Positions 958 to 36,660 of a stretch of DNA of 64,000 nucleotides are shown in pieces. The stretch's first letter is position 1; each line of letters starts with the position of its first letter. Source of the DNA: Candidatus Ryanbacteria bacterium RIFCSPLOWO2_12_FULL_44_26 (GTDB taxonomy: Bacteria > Patescibacteriota > Minisyncoccia > Ryanbacterales > HO2-45-13); NCBI GenBank assembly GCA_001821765.1, contig MHOA01000001.1, positions 88,294-152,293 on the forward strand, read 5' to 3'. The notes beneath the pieces were generated by a model that did not search any database, was not told where the DNA came from, and saw nothing but the letters and a program-made list of their open reading frames with translations. The position numbers and the translations under genes were made by a program.

Positions 958-1030
958 CCGCCCGTAGCTCAGTTGGTAGAGCAGCAGCCTTTTAAGCTGA
1001 TGGTCGTAGGTTCGATTCCTACCGGGCGGA
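958..1030 (+). tRNA. tRNA-Lys (anticodon UUU)
   Basis: 73-nt cloverleaf: acceptor CCGCCCG/CGGGCGG, D-arm GCTC-AGTTGGTA-GAGC, anticodon loop CTTTTAA, T-arm GTAGG-TTCGATT-CCTAC, discriminator A; CCA not encoded. Confidence 0.9.
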
Positions 1031-1207
1031 CACTTTAGAAAAGCGCAAGCCAGAGGAAGCCGCCTCGCGGAGTTTATCCTGACGAAGGAAGGACTCGGCG
1101 GCCATTTCGTATTGAATTTTGGGGGCAAAAACGAATTTGCTGGAGGACTCCATGAGAAGCATTGAACGAAGTGTTGCAGTAACTGGTTGAATGTGCTCCA
1201 CGCTGGC

Positions 1208-1236
1208 TTGACAGGATAGATGTAATATGCTACACT
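1208..1236 (+). promoter_or_regulatory. near-consensus sigma70-type promoter (TTGACA-N17-TGcTACACT)
   Basis: TTGACA at 1208-1213, 17-nt spacer, extended -10 TGcTACACT at 1228-1236; reads toward hairpin and lipoprotein gene. Confidence 0.5.
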
Positions 1237-1324
1237 ATGGTGCATAATTTGAGGTGTAGATTTGCCCTTAAATTAGCGAAAATAGCTCTTTGATAAGGCG
1301 GGAAAAGGAGAAAAACAGAAAATC

Positions 1325-1410
1325 GTTTAGGTTTACCCGGTGAGTAGCGCATTGGACATCTGATTTAGATATCTAGTGCGCTACTCATATCGGGTAGAAA
1401 AAACCTAAAC
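1325..1410 (+). repeat. 85-nt imperfect inverted repeat (26-nt arms, nested palindrome TAGATATCTA in loop)
   Basis: Left arm GTTTAGGTTTACCCGGTGAGTAGCGC pairs with right arm GCGCTACTCAtaTCGGGTagaaAAACCTAAAC; ends 4 nt before the SD of the 1427 ORF. Confidence 0.7.
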
Positions 1411-1426
1411 CCAAAAGGAGGTCTGT

Positions 1427-1903
1427 ATGAAGTACGCATTGAGTATCATCGGTCTGGTCTGTTTGGTTGCGGCGGTGGGCTGCAACAATCAAACGCCTGC
1501 CTCGGTTTCCAGCGGGGTCGTCGCGGTCGCTCAGAATGAGCGCTATCGCTTCAATGCGGAGATTGCTTCTCTCAACAAAGCACTGAATGAATTCCGCGAG
1601 TACCGTGAGTACCTTGAGAACGATCCCAGATTCCTTTTCTACCTGATGGACCGCGATCTGGACGCCGTCGAGCAGGGTCGAGAGGCGCGCGGTAGTTTCA
1701 GCGACTACTTCGTACCCAACGCGGCCAAGGCGCTTAAGGCCGGTGCCGCAAGGAAAGACATCGCGACTCGAATCGACCGGGTGATCGCTCTTGCGGAGAA
1801 GGAAATCTACTTGTCCAGTCTCGTGGCTCAACTCATGAAGGAAGGCGGGTCGGCGGCTGTCCGATCCTACGCTGACGAGTGGATTCGAGGAAGCCAAAAG
1901 TAA
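1427..1903 (+). CDS. putative lipoprotein, GC-rich (foreign-looking) gene
   Basis: Strong SD AAGGAGG (1415-1421) with 5-nt spacer; signal peptide with lipobox AAVGC; about 57% GC versus about 40% flanks; followed by terminator. Confidence 0.6.
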   Translation: MKYALSIIGLVCLVAAVGCNNQTPASVSSGVVAVAQNERYRFNAEIASLNKALNEFREYREYLENDPRFLFYLMDRDLDAVEQGREARGSFSDYFVPNAAKALKAGAARKDIATRIDRVIALAEKEIYLSSLVAQLMKEGGSAAVRSYADEWIRGSQK

Positions 1904-1936
1904 TCCCATCAATCTCTCCCGTCAAGTTCCAGCCCA

Positions 1937-1981
1937 AGCCCTTTGCAGTAGTAACATCGCTGTAAAGGGCTTCTTTTTTTC
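1937..1981 (+). terminator. rho-independent terminator
   Basis: GCCCTTTGCAG...CTGTAAAGGGC stem followed by T9. Confidence 0.6.
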
Positions 1982-2086
1982 AATAATTTAGAAGACAAGA
2001 ATTTGCCGCCAAAGCAGTAAATTTTTCAATCCAGTTTTCATTGAAAAATTTACTGAAATGATTTATTCTTAACTCAATAAAAACTT

Positions 2087-2340
2087 GTGGTTCGGCAGAC
2101 TCACCATCCTGAGTTTATCGAAGGGAAATTATCATCAGTGCGGCTCACTTCGACTTGGTTCGGCTTTACTCACCACAAGTCGCTCAGTACAGGCCGCCGC
2201 ATTTTCGGATTTCTAGGTGGGGTTTCCCTCGTCCTTCGACTGGCTCAGGACGAAAACGGCTTGCCCGCCCGTAGTCCCGCTTCCAGCGGGACGGAGGAGG
2301 GTTCGCACTATTTTAAGAATATTGGGCTAAGAATGTAACT
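2087..2340 (+). ncRNA. GC-rich structured non-coding segment (candidate ncRNA or 5' leader; class unassigned)
   Basis: About 55% GC with no convincing ORF (only a GTG-start R/G/S-rich 83-aa frame); internal 19-nt direct repeat GGTTCGGCnnnACTCACCA at 2089 and 2157; multiple complementary segments (TCCTGAG/CTCAGGA; GTCCCGCT-tcca-GCGGGAC). Confidence 0.3.
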
Positions 2341-14952: not shown

Positions 14953-15004
<52 letters not shown>

Positions 15005-15011
15005 TTAGTAG

Positions 15012-15695
15012 ATGGCATTATTATCGTATAAATTTTTTAGAAATTTTCTTGCAGTCGTTGCTTTTTATCTAAGCTATATTCTTTTGCGTCCGTTTTTTAA
15101 AATTATTTTCTCTGTAAAAGTTACTTTTCCGGAAAATTTTAGGGAAAAAATACAATTTCCGGTCATTTTTGTTACAAATCACAAGACCCATTTTGACCCT
15201 TGGATTTTTGCGGCAATGATGCCTTTTGTCTATCTTCGCGGAATCGTGCCGATCCGCTATATGGCGACTACTCGGTTCAAACACTTTTTTATGAAATTTC
15301 TTTACAGGATTGGAGTTATTAAAACTATATATTTTATTTATAACGTGCTTACTATTACTGATAAAGAAACTATTGAAGAAAAACTGACGCCATACATTAA
15401 AGCTCTTCAAAGTAACCAGACGGTCATGCTTTTCCCGGAAGGGGGATTGTTCCGTCATGATGCGGTAGGAGAATTCAAAAGAGGTGCGGTATATCTTCAT
15501 GCAATGAGCGGTATGCCAATTTTGCCGGCTTCTATTCGATTTTCCGGAAATGGCTTAAGAAAAAAATGCCATGTTCATTTTGGAAATCCCCTTATGATCC
15601 CTATTAATTTAAAAAGCGGGGGAGACGCCGTGCAAGCCGATGCATTAAAACATCTTCGGGAAATCATTGTTGGGTTGTATGAATATGCGGAATAA
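15012..15695 (+). CDS. lysophospholipid acyltransferase (PlsC/LPLAT family)
   Basis: HX4D motif NHKTHFD, FPEGG motif, N-terminal TM. Confidence 0.75.
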   Translation: MALLSYKFFRNFLAVVAFYLSYILLRPFFKIIFSVKVTFPENFREKIQFPVIFVTNHKTHFDPWIFAAMMPFVYLRGIVPIRYMATTRFKHFFMKFLYRIGVIKTIYFIYNVLTITDKETIEEKLTPYIKALQSNQTVMLFPEGGLFRHDAVGEFKRGAVYLHAMSGMPILPASIRFSGNGLRKKCHVHFGNPLMIPINLKSGGDAVQADALKHLREIIVGLYEYAE

Positions 15696-15769
15696 AAGCT
15701 TTTTGCAGTATATGATTTTTTAATAAAATCTATGGTAAAATAAGTGGTGTATGAGATTAGACTTGAAAA

Positions 15770-16474
15770 ATGCTCAACACAACTTTTTGGAAAAAGTATT
15801 TTGAGGTTTATGATTTACTTAATGAACTGATACCGTACCGGGAGTTATTAGACAAGATTTGTGAAGAGTTGGATGTAAAAAATGGTGATTTGGTTTTGGA
15901 TGCTGGTGCCGGAACAGGCAATCTTGGAGTTGAAATAGAAAAAAGAGACGGAAGAGTTGTTGGATTCGATTTGTCACCAGAAGGGTTGGGAATACATAAA
16001 AAGAAAACTCCATTTGCTGAACTGGTAATAGGAGATTTGTCTCGCCCACTACCTTTTGAGAATAATTATTTTGATAAAATTTGCTCAAATAATACGATTT
16101 ATACAATTCCCAGAAAATACAGAGAAGATATATTTAGAGAATTTTACCGTGTACTAAAACCGAGAGGGAAGGTGGTTGTTTCTAATATTACCCTAGGATT
16201 TAACCCATTCAAGATATATTTAACCCATATAAAACAGAGTTTTAGAAAAATTGGCATAATGAACACCATGTTAAAGGTTATTAAATTGGCGATTCCAACT
16301 ATTAAAATATTTTATTATAATCACCTAATTCAGAAAGAAGACAGAAGCGGACGTTATGATTTCTTTGAAGTTGATGAACAAAAGGATTTATTGAGAAAAA
16401 CAGGTTTCACAAATATTTCTGAAAATAAAAGTGTCTATGTCGGACAAGCTGTTCTCAACACAGCAATTAAATAG
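15770..16474 (+). CDS. class I SAM-dependent methyltransferase
   Basis: Motif I VLDAGAGTGNLG, motif post-I, LKPRGKVVV. Confidence 0.75.
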   Translation: MLNTTFWKKYFEVYDLLNELIPYRELLDKICEELDVKNGDLVLDAGAGTGNLGVEIEKRDGRVVGFDLSPEGLGIHKKKTPFAELVIGDLSRPLPFENNYFDKICSNNTIYTIPRKYREDIFREFYRVLKPRGKVVVSNITLGFNPFKIYLTHIKQSFRKIGIMNTMLKVIKLAIPTIKIFYYNHLIQKEDRSGRYDFFEVDEQKDLLRKTGFTNISENKSVYVGQAVLNTAIK

Positions 16475-16511
16475 TAAAAATCTAGTAGGTTAAAAAATAT
16501 AAGAACCTTTT

Positions 16512-17144
16512 ATGTGGAAACTAGTATTCTATACTAAAATATTGCTTCTCAAAATTTGGCTCTCATTTAAGGGCTATGAGTTATTTGTTCGTGACTATAA
16601 CTCGACACCTTCGGAAGTGTTTATTTTTAGAAAAAAAATATACCAAGTAGAAAACTATTTTGGAGATAATATTAAAATTGAAGATGTATGGAAAGATAAA
16701 TATGACGAGAAAAGTTTTCACGTTTATGTTAAAAATAAAAATTCAGTTATCGGCGCTTCTCGGCTAACATACATAGCGCCATTACCAATCACAGATGTGT
16801 TTAATGTTCACTCACTTAATAATAGTGTTGGTGAATTTTCTCGTTTGGTAATTGAAACGGATTTACGAGGCAACAGAAGGTTAATTCTTATAGCTTTGAC
16901 TTACGGGATGCTAAAAGCTAGTAGAAAAATTGGTATTAGACAGTGGGTAGCATTTATGCCATTAAAATTTAAAAATTCCCTTGAAAGGCTCGGAGTGAAA
17001 TTTTCTGAAATATCCCAACAAGCGTTGACAAATTATCATATCCAAAATCGTTCCATCTTATCTGGCTACTTTAAAAATGATATCAGACCGTATATCATAA
17101 AGACAAAATCTCTAAAAAGAGGTTTTGCGGGAATATTTAAGTAA
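16512..17144 (+). CDS. GNAT-fold N-acyltransferase of the autoinducer-synthase / N-acyl amino acid synthase superfamily (putative)
   Basis: About 210 aa; GEFSRLVIE...RGNRRL block resembling the E-x-SR-F/L-AV core of LuxI/N-acyl amino acid synthase-like enzymes. Confidence 0.4.
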   Translation: MWKLVFYTKILLLKIWLSFKGYELFVRDYNSTPSEVFIFRKKIYQVENYFGDNIKIEDVWKDKYDEKSFHVYVKNKNSVIGASRLTYIAPLPITDVFNVHSLNNSVGEFSRLVIETDLRGNRRLILIALTYGMLKASRKIGIRQWVAFMPLKFKNSLERLGVKFSEISQQALTNYHIQNRSILSGYFKNDIRPYIIKTKSLKRGFAGIFK

Positions 17145-17170
17145 ATTTATATCTTAAAAACACTAGCTGG

Positions 17171-18829
17171 ATGTTAAGTGTTGCCAACAATATTTTACTG
17201 ACTGTTGTTTTCATCAACTTTATTCTTGGTTTCGCGGTTCTCAGAAGAAACTGGAAAAATCCCACTAACCTTGCTTATTTACTGCTTACGTTTTCCATAA
17301 TATTATGGGCTATTTCTCTTTTCTTTTTTAGGGCAGCAAATAGCATTGATAATATTCTCATTATTGGGAAAATTGTCTACACAATCCCTCCATTCATTCC
17401 ATTCTTTTTTCTTCTGTTTGTTTATTCACTAGTTGGATCAAAAATTTCTTTACTAAAACTAGCAGTCTTTCTCTTACTTCCAACCATACTTATTTCTGTT
17501 ATTAGTCTGGAAACTTCGTTAGTAATAGCTGGCGCCGTGATAGAAAGAGGGATTAACCAGCTGCACTTTGGTTCTTTTTACTTTTTATATCTTTCTTATC
17601 TTACGCTTTATTTTTTAATAGGATTTATAACTTTATTCAAACGGTATCGTACTGAAAACAATCTGATTAAAAAAGCTCAATATAGACTTATACTCATTGG
17701 AGTAACTACTGCAATAGTGGTAGGGCTTTTTGCTAATGGATATTTCCTAACAACTTTTGCGTTTCAATATAACTGGGTTGGGCCAATAGGGACGGTATTT
17801 ATGGTAACACTCTTCGCTTACGCTATTGTCCAATATCGTTTATTTAACATTAAAGTAATTTCTGTTCAGATATTTGGCGGAGCTTTAGCTGGCGTACTTT
17901 TAGTAAAGTTATTATCCTCTCAAGGTCCCAGCGATTTTACCTTTAATAGTATAATATTTATTGGAGCAGTTGTTATAACTATTCTTCTAATAAGAGGAGT
18001 ACTCAAAGAAGTGGAAACAAGAGAAAAAATACAGGAACTGGCGGGGAAACTAGAAGCAGCAAATGCAGAACTTCGGCAACTGGATAAAGCAAAGTCAGAA
18101 TTTATTGATATTGCTTCTCATCAATTGCGCACTCCGCTCTCTATTATGAAAGGGTACTTGTCAATGCTGAATGAAGGTACGTTTGGGAAGTTGTCTATAA
18201 AATTGAAAGATCCGTTAAATAAAATCTATATTTCAAACGAGCGCCTTATTACGCTTGTCGCGGATTTGCTTGATCTTTCGCGAATTGAGCGAAAAAAACT
18301 GCAATATTCATTTGAACATATGCAAGTTTCCAATGTTATTCACTCAATTGTGATAGATTTTAAACAAACAGCCAGACAAAAAGGTCTGGCACTGCATTGG
18401 AGAAAACCAAAAAAACTGCCGCTTGTCTATGCCGACCCGCAAAAGCTGCGTCAAGTGTTTTTAAATATTATTGACAATGCAGTAAAGTACACAAACAAGG
18501 GATCAATTGATATTTCATTAAAACAAGACGGTGATTTTATTGTTTTTTCCGCAAAAGACACCGGTATTGGGTTAACAGAGAAAGAAGCACAGCGGCTTTT
18601 TCAGAAATTCGTTCGGGGAGAAGAAATGAAACGGGCAAAAACACAGGGCATGGGGCTTGGGATGTATGTGGCAAAATTGATTATTCAGGATCACCGGGGA
18701 GCAATTTGGGCGGAATCTCCCGGAAAGGGAAAGGGGAGTATCTTTTTCGTAAGACTGCCAATAGCAAAATCCGAAAACAAAGAAGACGAAAATGAAAAAC
18801 AAATGGAAGAATTTATTAAGAATATCTAA
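17171..18829 (+). CDS. sensor histidine kinase with N-terminal multi-TM (about 7 helices) sensor domain
   Basis: H-box ASHQLRTPL, N-box IIDNAVKYT, G-boxes DTGIGL / GMGLGM; no response regulator adjacent. Confidence 0.85.
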   Translation: MLSVANNILLTVVFINFILGFAVLRRNWKNPTNLAYLLLTFSIILWAISLFFFRAANSIDNILIIGKIVYTIPPFIPFFFLLFVYSLVGSKISLLKLAVFLLLPTILISVISLETSLVIAGAVIERGINQLHFGSFYFLYLSYLTLYFLIGFITLFKRYRTENNLIKKAQYRLILIGVTTAIVVGLFANGYFLTTFAFQYNWVGPIGTVFMVTLFAYAIVQYRLFNIKVISVQIFGGALAGVLLVKLLSSQGPSDFTFNSIIFIGAVVITILLIRGVLKEVETREKIQELAGKLEAANAELRQLDKAKSEFIDIASHQLRTPLSIMKGYLSMLNEGTFGKLSIKLKDPLNKIYISNERLITLVADLLDLSRIERKKLQYSFEHMQVSNVIHSIVIDFKQTARQKGLALHWRKPKKLPLVYADPQKLRQVFLNIIDNAVKYTNKGSIDISLKQDGDFIVFSAKDTGIGLTEKEAQRLFQKFVRGEEMKRAKTQGMGLGMYVAKLIIQDHRGAIWAESPGKGKGSIFFVRLPIAKSENKEDENEKQMEEFIKNI

Positions 18830-18986
18830 AAAAACAAAACATTCCATTATTCTTGGGAATATTGGGATATTTTTAAATATCCATATAGTTTAAAACCAAT
18901 CTTGACGCAATAACGCATCAGTGATATTTTTTGTAGAAGCTTAGGCAGTTCATTGTCAATTGAATAACGGGGAAAAGGAGAAGTTC

Positions 18987-36359: not shown

Positions 36360-36660
36360 AGTTCAGTCTGCTTATAGGTCGCCAAAGGTATATTGTGCGA
36401 CCTAGGCGATGAGGGGTTTCCTAGGATGCGCCACGATTCACGATCTCGCTGCGGCGAGGGTTCCGACACCTCCCTCCCCGCCTGTGGGTGAGTTTGTCGA
36501 GCAGTGAGAGAAGTTCCCTCGAGCCGCGCCCTGTAAAGGGTGGAGGGAGGACGCCGAGTTTGCGTTTTGGAGTCGGCGGTGCTCGCCGACTAGAAAAACT
36601 CGACGCCCTTCCACAAAGGAAAGGCCGGTACGCTGATAGCGTACCGGCCTTTTTTACTTC
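36360..36660 (+). ncRNA. GC-rich structured RNA candidate ending in an intrinsic terminator (class unassigned)
   Basis: About 60% GC island with no credible ORF; helices AGGTCGC...GCGACCT, CCTCCCTCC...GGAGGGAGG, GAGTCGGCG...CGCCGACT; 12-bp GC hairpin plus T6 at 36623-36655. Confidence 0.35.
36620..36656 (+). terminator. strong rho-independent terminator
   Basis: GGCCGGTACGCT-gat-AGCGTACCGGCC followed by T6. Confidence 0.7.

Follow-up and report, generated by a model that had tools for sequence, protein, structure and literature searches.

What occupies the 1.3 kb between a tRNA-Lys(UUU) gene and mpg in Candidatus Ryanbacteria bacterium RIFCSPLOWO2_12_FULL_44_26, and how did it come to lie there? 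The interval carries a single gene, encoding a 158-amino-acid (aa) lipoprotein, and is part of a 64,000-nucleotide (nt) stretch of contig MHOA01000001.1 (hereafter the window, to which coordinates refer unless a locus number precedes them; features lie on the + strand unless stated otherwise). Genomes of the Candidate Phyla Radiation (CPR, Patescibacteria) are tiny, and the cell-surface proteins of these bacteria are presumed to mediate attachment to host cells. To our knowledge, few mobile elements have been described in them. We favour, with moderate confidence, the reading that positions 1032 to ~2320 are a small integrative islet, now decayed, that adjoins the 3' end of tRNA-Lys(UUU), resembles a cis-mobilizable element (CIME) and carries a horizontally spreading lipoprotein cassette. 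Read in this way, the islet would be a tangible example, with well-defined limits, of recent gene flow linking Parcubacteria that differ greatly in base composition, and the item moved would be a complete expression unit for an uncharacterised family of surface lipoproteins. It would indicate tRNA-Lys(UUU) as an integration site in Parcubacteria, offer the cassette and its end motifs as a tractable marker in the hunt for a vehicle or integrase, and mark the family out for structural and functional study.

Evidence for horizontal acquisition of the lipoprotein module

An earlier model-made annotation that used only the letters (the sequence-only reading) had described the interval as 50–57% GC throughout and as acquired from a donor of higher GC. 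Its composition is in fact a mosaic, in which three GC-rich blocks are split by AT-rich ones: 50.6% GC at 1032–1207, 39.3% across the promoter and leader (1208–1426), 56.2% in the open reading frame (ORF; 1427–1903), 34.8% at 1904–2084, and 56.6% at 2085–2305, the last being the GC-rich non-coding stretch that had been placed after the terminator. At 49.0% GC overall (window, 41.6%), the interval is still the GC-richest 1.3 kb of the 64 kb (2/1254 sliding windows equal or exceed it), with a tetranucleotide distance 3 standard deviations above the mean (z = 3.0). It is thus deviant in both of the checks that had been suggested, sliding-window GC and tetranucleotides, and its gene also in GC content at third codon positions (GC3).

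GC3 reaches 0.67 in the lipoprotein gene versus 0.388 ± 0.055 for the 61 window ORFs, a deviation of ~5 standard deviations, and the next real gene is rplU (L21) at 0.52. Other loci, designated by L numbers, repeat the pattern: the excess over the host is +0.30 in the window, +0.32 in L005 (a host of 33% GC), +0.38 in L099 and L103, +0.24 in L101, and +0.14 in L008 and L011. Because the distant family members L102 and L106 show an excess of only +0.04, high GC3 is a trait of one clade and not of the whole family. The family itself is small. We found 21 homologues, and a profile search of 1.84 billion representative proteins returned only 74 clusters, nearly all of small proteins (71–294 aa, mostly ~150–180). 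Hosts of the homologues, where named, are Parcubacteria or unclassified bacteria. Close homologues share 60–75% aa and 70–79% nt identity, are confined to Parcubacteria and reside in hosts of 33–44% GC; the window gene is 79% identical at the nt level to that of L098–100, whose host DNA has 33% GC. The cassette thus appears to represent a GC3-rich clade of a Parcubacteria-restricted family that has spread among Parcubacteria of very different composition, and a clade that moved among such hosts would look foreign in every one of them.

The genomic sites of the copies point the same way. They adjoin the genes for IleRS, GreA/AsnRS, RecG, an ABC transporter/GyrA, tRNA-Val and other genes. The window and the genome of L008 and L009 share the gene order ProRS-MreB-PBP2-GreA-AsnRS; GreA and AsnRS abut in the window (49656/49649) and are ~2.1 kb apart in L008/9, where the gap holds a putative RelE-like toxin–antitoxin pair and the cassette. 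The same junction is therefore occupied in one genome and empty in the other. Between these two genomes the lipoprotein is 63% identical, compared with 59% for MreB, 46–49% for two aminoacyl-tRNA synthetases and 46% for GreA. Relative to the roughly equidistant L102 genome, the family member is 44% identical, DnaB 56% and L21 48%. Non-coding parts are conserved as well: the promoter and leader region is 80% identical to that of L011/L012, and the spacer after the terminator (..AAGAATTTGCCGCCAAAGC..) is common to L011/12, L103 and L108. By these alignments, the moving unit is larger than the ORF, and promoter, leader and terminator travel along. Acquisition of the module from a GC-richer source, as the sequence-only reading had supposed, is well supported by sequence comparison because of the GC3 excess, the unrelated sites, the GreA|AsnRS junction and these co-travelling non-coding parts.

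The tRNA-Lys link and the ends of the proposed islet

The islet begins at the first base after tRNA-Lys(UUU) (958–1031; ARAGORN, and 73.5 bits with the Rfam tRNA model), the proposed integration target on the side of the left attachment site (attL). A second genome, L208, also has the cassette just 3' of a tRNA-Lys(UUU) (L208 49–124), with a tRNA sequence and a downstream gene that differ from those of the window. Between this tRNA and the cassette lies a second copy of the tRNA 3' half with ~20 nt of flank. The repeat matches its own tRNA region with a score of 32 (null maximum 23, 0/300 shuffles), and L208 161–240 matches window 1001–1048 with a score of 46 (null maximum 23, 0/300 shuffles). 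The flank of the window tRNA, ACTTTAGAAAAGCGCAAG (1032–1049), is homologous to the flank of the duplicated half beside the L208 cassette; on its own, this flank gives p ~0.02.

The right end of the islet bears a putative degenerate copy of the tRNA-Lys T-arm and acceptor 3' strand (CGCTTCCAGCGGGACGGA) followed by flank (GTTCGCACTATTTTAAGAAT), together at 2278–2320. When compared with the T-arm, acceptor and flank of the L208 tRNA, the right end (CGCTTCCAGCGGGACGGA + GGAGGGTTCGCACTATTTTAAGAA) scored 23, a value reached by 4/500 shuffles. The proposed attachment (att) core reads GGTTCGAnTCCnnCCGGGCGGACAnTT..AAAAGCnCAA. Positions 2301–2320 match the end of L103 at 19/20 positions. L103, whose tail is shorter, shares collinear tail blocks up to this point (GTTCG[A/C]ACTATTTTAAGAAT); because the two loci then diverge into different genes, we place the right boundary at ~2320. 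We propose that 2278–2320 is a remnant resembling the right attachment site (attR) and the boundary of the shared unit. The sister-strain scaffolds L093 and L094 end exactly at 2307 and 2301, which is consistent with a repeat or a strain-variable edge. Two other candidate end repeats were set aside. A duplicate of the tRNA 5' end at 2260–2274 (CTTGCCCGCCCGTAG) was marginal (score 25, 95th percentile 22, null maximum 29) and comes from a part of the tRNA not expected in a classical att repeat, and a 19-nt inverted repeat (1025–1043/2339–2357) was at chance level and lies outside the boundary defined by L103.

CIMEs are elements that have kept their att sites and lost their integration and transfer genes, and tandem accretion at the 3' end of tRNA-Lys is known in streptococci, for example in IME_Sag2603_tRNAlys (PMC5704250). 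The islet likewise lacks integrase and transfer genes: as the sequence-only reading had noted, no integrase or recombinase is present in the interval ORFs, nor did the Pfam content of called genes reveal one within ~8 kb on either side. With an intact tRNA at its left end, what looks like a degenerate partial copy at its right end and no integrase, the interval shows the pattern of a decayed tRNA-integrating element. The earlier suggestion of an integrase-less remnant at the tRNA thus gains support from the duplicated tRNA half of L208, its counterpart in the window being degenerate and marginal.

The following course of events would account for these features. A GC-richer Parcubacteria lineage, or an element of such a lineage, may have supplied a self-expressing cassette with a strong promoter, Shine–Dalgarno (SD) sequence and terminator. 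Entry would have been by site-specific recombination into the 3' end of tRNA-Lys, mediated by an integrase since lost or acting in trans. The GC-rich tail (2085–2320) could then be what is left, as scars, of the element or of several that accreted in tandem.

Alternative explanations

Several observations weigh against an integrative islet. In L208 the duplicated half lies on the tRNA side of the cassette and not beyond it, so that a tandem-accretion step must be assumed there. The att-like repeat of the window is degenerate; its best uncorrected p is ~0.008, and sibling tests were marginal or negative. No tRNA 3'-end repeats occur downstream of the tRNAs near the L005, L010, L011, L101 and L102 copies, no tRNA-Lys-like remnants were found near other cassettes, and most copies are not at tRNA-Lys. 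Among ~20 homologous loci and in viral, phage and plasmid collections, a limited search space, there was no integrase-bearing parent element. Protein and DNA searches of IMG/VR, GenBank phages and PLSDB plasmids likewise found no copy of the cassette; 16-mer pattern matches in IMG/VR were close to the chance estimate and showed no blastn relation. We also found no closely related genome with an empty tRNA-Lys/mpg site. Among relatives of mpg there is a gap in identity between 93% and 60%: the scaffolds at 99% and 93% break off where the island begins or ends, and the relatives at 60% have no synteny. The comparison with sister genomes that had been suggested therefore gave no empty site. A search of metagenomes for an empty-site pattern (tRNA 3' end, ≤30 nt, TTTTAAGAATATTGGGC) returned 0 matches and is uninformative, the right anchor lying partly inside the shared unit. 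Finally, GC1 and GC2 are also raised in the gene, with a smaller excess, so amino-acid composition contributes to its GC, and L102 lies in a partly syntenic rplU-dnaB-cysS neighbourhood; the lipoprotein family may be old in this lineage.

Some of these points would fit a cassette that moves by DNA uptake and by illegitimate or homology-facilitated recombination at permissive intergenic sites, its adjacency to tRNA-Lys and the att-like similarity being coincidental. The copies at non-tRNA sites without tRNA remnants, the statistically marginal remnant in the window and the failure to find an integrase or carrier element all speak for such a route. We regard it as a serious contender but an unlikely one: the cassette directly follows tRNA-Lys(UUU) in two independent genomes, whose tRNAs and downstream genes differ, the duplicated tRNA 3' half and flank of L208 are unambiguous, and the window and L103 have a discrete right end in common.

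A bolder and rather doubtful possibility is that Parcubacteria hold a pool of surface-protein expression cassettes (the lipoprotein gene, and a secreted-protein gene at L108 described below) that share a tRNA-Lys-like attachment sequence and end motifs and are shuttled by a recombinase acting in trans. The end motifs would be a left hairpin AAACCCTTGAAAAAT..GGGTTTTT and a right end GTTCGMACTATTTTAAGAAT. If true, this would constitute an exchange system distinct from integrons and would permit rapid surface remodelling in episymbiotic CPR bacteria.

The gene could instead be native and vertically inherited. Its high GC would then stem from amino-acid composition and from selection, for instance on codon use or mRNA stability in a highly expressed gene, and the differing sites from the poor conservation of gene order in CPR genomes. 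In all family members examined, the gene is at least slightly richer in GC than the host, and GC1 and GC2 are raised as well; L21 has the next-highest GC3 among real genes; and L102 is partly syntenic, with an identity similar to that of housekeeping genes. Such an origin is nonetheless improbable, as it sits poorly with a GC3 excess of at least +0.3 in several hosts versus +0.04 in L102 and L106, with a GreA|AsnRS junction that is intact in the window and occupied elsewhere, with the 63% versus 44% identity to two roughly equidistant genomes, with a nucleotide identity of 79% to a gene whose host has 33% GC, and with non-coding flanks that are conserved across unrelated sites.

We attach a similarly low probability to the idea that the GC-rich blocks 1032–1207 and 2085–2305 are genes of structured small RNAs (sRNAs), which would be compatible with an integrative islet. 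In an AT-rich genome, a high GC content between genes is a typical mark of structured RNA. The tail (2085–2277, no strand assigned) contains nested inverted repeats (including I4) and two GGTTCGGC motifs (2089–2096 and 2157–2164), parts of it are collinear with L103, and a weak promoter-like site at 2041–2069 points into it. Folding of the GC-rich blocks, however, is unexceptional (z only −1.6 to −2.0; −1.6 and −2.0 in the tail), and the tail varies in length from 0 to 230 nt between copies. A scan of the leader and the GC-rich non-coding blocks with Rfam matched only the tRNA, other hits having E ≥ 0.08 and falling far below gathering thresholds; for the proposed sRNA genes there was no Rfam match even at E up to 5. 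Segments 1032–1207 and 2019–2340 have no relatives in ~1 Mb of fetched loci or in the rest of the window, and no real similarity to another GC-rich intergenic block at 36.4 kb. Within the first block, a GC-rich stem-loop (GCCGCC...GGCGGC) followed by a T-rich stretch (1059–1103), seen in the sequence and its fold, is possibly a terminator or insulator after the tRNA; it has no relatives among the fetched loci. An 83-aa ORF over the tail (2087–2338) has no relatives either. A resemblance of the GC-rich flanks to widespread pseudo-ORFs derived from 'LSLSKG/FDKLR' repeats was considered and dropped: the motif occurs once in the window, and nothing relevant to these strings was found in the literature.

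An assembly chimera or mis-join at 1031 and/or ~2320 has a negligible probability: two scaffolds from other Rifle samples do end at 2301 and 2307, as expected for an islet with a repeat or strain-variable boundary, but a chimeric join is excluded for practical purposes because 901–2500, spanning the junctions, is 100% identical across four independent assemblies from three different pipelines (ENA ERZ4903125, NCBI GCA_001819895.1, JGI 3300002105 and ENA ERZ4903055). OGZ42092.1/OGZ42093.1 and three further Ryanbacteria records match the lipoprotein and the adjacent mpg protein exactly. The lipoprotein recurs unchanged in at least four records of Ryanbacteria metagenome-assembled genomes (MAGs) and on 36 contigs. 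The window matches contigs of Candidatus Ryanbacteria (Parcubacteria group, CPR) MAGs from the Rifle aquifer. In the lipoprotein cluster, P0145 and P0216 are two fragments (85 + 62 aa) on one 2455-nt ENA contig, which may reflect a disrupted allele or a sequencing error.

Comparison with known elements

A small integrase-less, tRNA-linked islet with cargo resembling a phage moron is an ordinary and already known kind of element. The interval resembles a CIME in its position at the 3' end of tRNA-Lys, the lack of an integrase, the small cargo, the scars consistent with tandem accretion and, less surely, the att-like partial tRNA repeats, which are clear in L208 and degenerate in the window. It differs in being far smaller (1.3 kb), in its CPR host, and in the occurrence of the same cargo at non-tRNA sites; no related functional integrative and conjugative or integrative and mobilizable element is known, and the repeats of the window are too degraded for functional att sites. 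With tRNA-linked genomic islands the interval shares atypical GC, GC3 and tetranucleotides, adjacency to a tRNA, a patchy distribution and a surface-protein cargo. Unlike these, it has a single gene, no mobility gene, and AT-rich regulatory segments between its GC-rich blocks.

Phage morons are autonomous promoter-gene-terminator units of deviant composition between prophage genes. The cassette is similar in having its own promoter and terminator, a deviant composition and, as in many morons, a small envelope lipoprotein, but it lies outside any prophage, has no phage gene nearby, and has no match in phage, IMG/VR or PHROG collections. Integron cassettes are likewise single-ORF modules that turn up in many genomic contexts and carry a structured element 3' of their ORF. 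The present cassette, by contrast, has its own promoter, is not in an array and has no IntI nearby; when the sequence was read by eye, without an attC model, no attC-type core or inverse core sites were recognised. The product, finally, recalls Braun-type Lpp, a label that JGI gives to one homologue, in its signal peptide with lipobox, its small, helical, coiled protein and its strong expression signals. It differs in its distinct 95-aa helical-bundle domain and in having no Pfam or NCBIfam match to Lpp. CPR bacteria are, moreover, generally thought to be without an outer membrane.

Organization of the cassette

The cassette core (~1205–2050) consists of a promoter, a structured 185-nt leader, an SD sequence, the ORF and a terminator, and by its sequence signals would be an autonomous expression unit. 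The promoter, SD sequence, ORF and terminator had been recognised in the sequence-only reading, as had an inverted repeat, and all withstood closer inspection. The near-consensus, sigma-70-type promoter (1208–1236; TTGACA-N17-TG-n-TACACT) agreed with the consensus at 10/12 positions in our scan and has the extended −10 TG. The inverted repeat at 1325–1410 is a long hairpin of the 5' untranslated region (86 nt, ~35 bp; inverted repeats I1 and I12, and the fold) that ends 5 nt before the SD, within a leader that has a stable predicted fold (1243–1440, −70.9 kcal/mol, z = −7.5). The strong SD (AAGGAGG, 1415–1421) precedes the lipoprotein gene (1427–1903) with its lipobox (AAVG|C). The rho-independent terminator (1936–1980; stem 1936–1948/1960–1972 followed by a T-run, inverted repeat I9) is conserved in 9 homologues, with compensatory changes in 8/14 pairs; on account of its 11-nt loop, it had escaped a simple scan for terminators.

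The leader seems particularly prone to exchanges of structured modules. Its 5' end forms a hairpin, AATTTGAGG...CCTTAAATT (1245–1275), which was found by folding, is kept in L008/9, L011 and L108, and could stabilise the mRNA at its 5' end or serve as an operator. Downstream of it is a single-stranded motif, ATAGCTCTTTGATAAG (1282–1297), that is invariant in the window, L108 and L009 and present in L011; L099 has a related motif, TTAGCTCTTT. The long hairpin, which is conserved with little covariation and might modulate translation or mRNA stability from its position just before the SD, is optional: L108 and L008/9, which share the whole leader (5' hairpin, ATAGCTCTTTGATAAG and long hairpin), have it, and L011 and L208 do not. 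At the corresponding place, L099 has an unrelated GC-rich, structured insert of ~110 nt (L099 5770–5885). Downstream of the terminator, the spacer CAATAATTTAGAAGACAAGAATTTGCCGCCAAAGCAGT leads to an AT-rich, perfect 16-bp hairpin (I2, 2015–2055), the two spanning 1981–2055.

Substitutions among five homologues are most frequent at codon position 3 and least frequent at position 2 (for example 0.25/0.13/0.43 at positions 1/2/3), and for this reason we regard ORF 1427–1903 as a real gene. Its product comprises a signal peptide that ends at the lipobox (MKYALSIIGLVCLVAAVG|C), as required of a lipoprotein on sequence, a coiled, variable linker and, at the C terminus, a strongly conserved helical domain of ~95 aa. 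The Cys and the preceding G are kept in 18/21 homologues, and the other 3 have a transmembrane anchor instead. The AlphaFold model is all-helical and confident (pLDDT 85.6). The lipoprotein has no Pfam, PHROG or NCBIfam match, and its best Foldseek hit against the PDB has E = 0.86. We infer that the product is a helical, extracytoplasmic protein of the cell surface that is anchored in the membrane and abundantly expressed, and favour a role at the surface or envelope; a lipid anchor would hold it to the membrane's outer face. On the opposite strand, a 175-aa ORF (1385–1912, − strand) is the exact codon mirror of the sense frame and stays open only if that frame avoids TTA, CTA and TCA. We reject it as an overlapping gene: it has 1–6 stops in L005, L008, L010, L099, L101 and L102, and the substitution pattern is wrong for an antisense frame, and it is an artefact, in line with the earlier view that such a mirror ORF is to be expected in GC-rich DNA.

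Some copies have further features in their surroundings. A conserved hairpin, AAACC(C)TTGAAAAAT..GGGTTTTT, precedes the −35 box at a short distance in L009 (5735–5760), L102 (7775–7800) and L108 (98–123), the L102 carrier being the 44%-identical family member; the window does not have it. An insulating terminator and a left-end motif are two possible roles for it. In the GreA–AsnRS gap, the cassette is directly preceded by two small ORFs (63 and 83 aa; L009 5227–5712) that, judged by their sequences, look like a RelE/ParE-type toxin and its antitoxin. The same genome carries an intergenic repeat of ~170–200 nt that resembles a miniature inverted-repeat transposable element (L009 83–253 and 4923–5117; L008 5609–5809 and 7062–7233), with at least 4 copies, one of them inverted, within ~12 kb and one right after GreA beside the cassette. 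Directly downstream of the closest flanked homologue, L108 1104–1541 is a second GC-rich gene, which encodes a 145-aa secreted protein and has its own promoter-like site and terminator; this arrangement hints that cassettes can be stacked. After the 145-aa gene, a GGTTCGGCGGGCGG motif resembles a truncated tRNA 3' end (10/500 shuffles reach its score).

Other regions of the window

The neighbours of the interval are rpoA, ribosomal protein genes, hrcA-grpE-dnaK-dnaJ, mpg, rmuC, rplU, recR, dnaB and cysS. Among them, mpg (2378–2902), which encodes a 3-methyladenine glycosylase, has no relative of >60% identity apart from near-identical strains, and Nitrospirota proteins (53–56%) are about as similar to it as those of other CPR bacteria. 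Two further regions of the window are of unusual composition. The first, the GC-rich intergenic block at 36360–36660, reaches up to 66% GC per 100 nt and is closed by a strong terminator hairpin (AAAGGCCGGTACGCTGATAGCGTACCGGCCTTTTTT). It offers no credible ORF, no Rfam hit in it passes the gathering threshold, and the block is a candidate structured sRNA of ~300 nt. The second, at 15000–18830, is a low-GC island (30–37%) with the most deviant tetranucleotide signature of the window. It encodes an acyltransferase, an SAM methyltransferase, a FeeM/LuxI-like N-acyl amino acid (autoinducer-type) synthase and a 7TM-HisKA histidine kinase, and may be an acquired signalling cluster.

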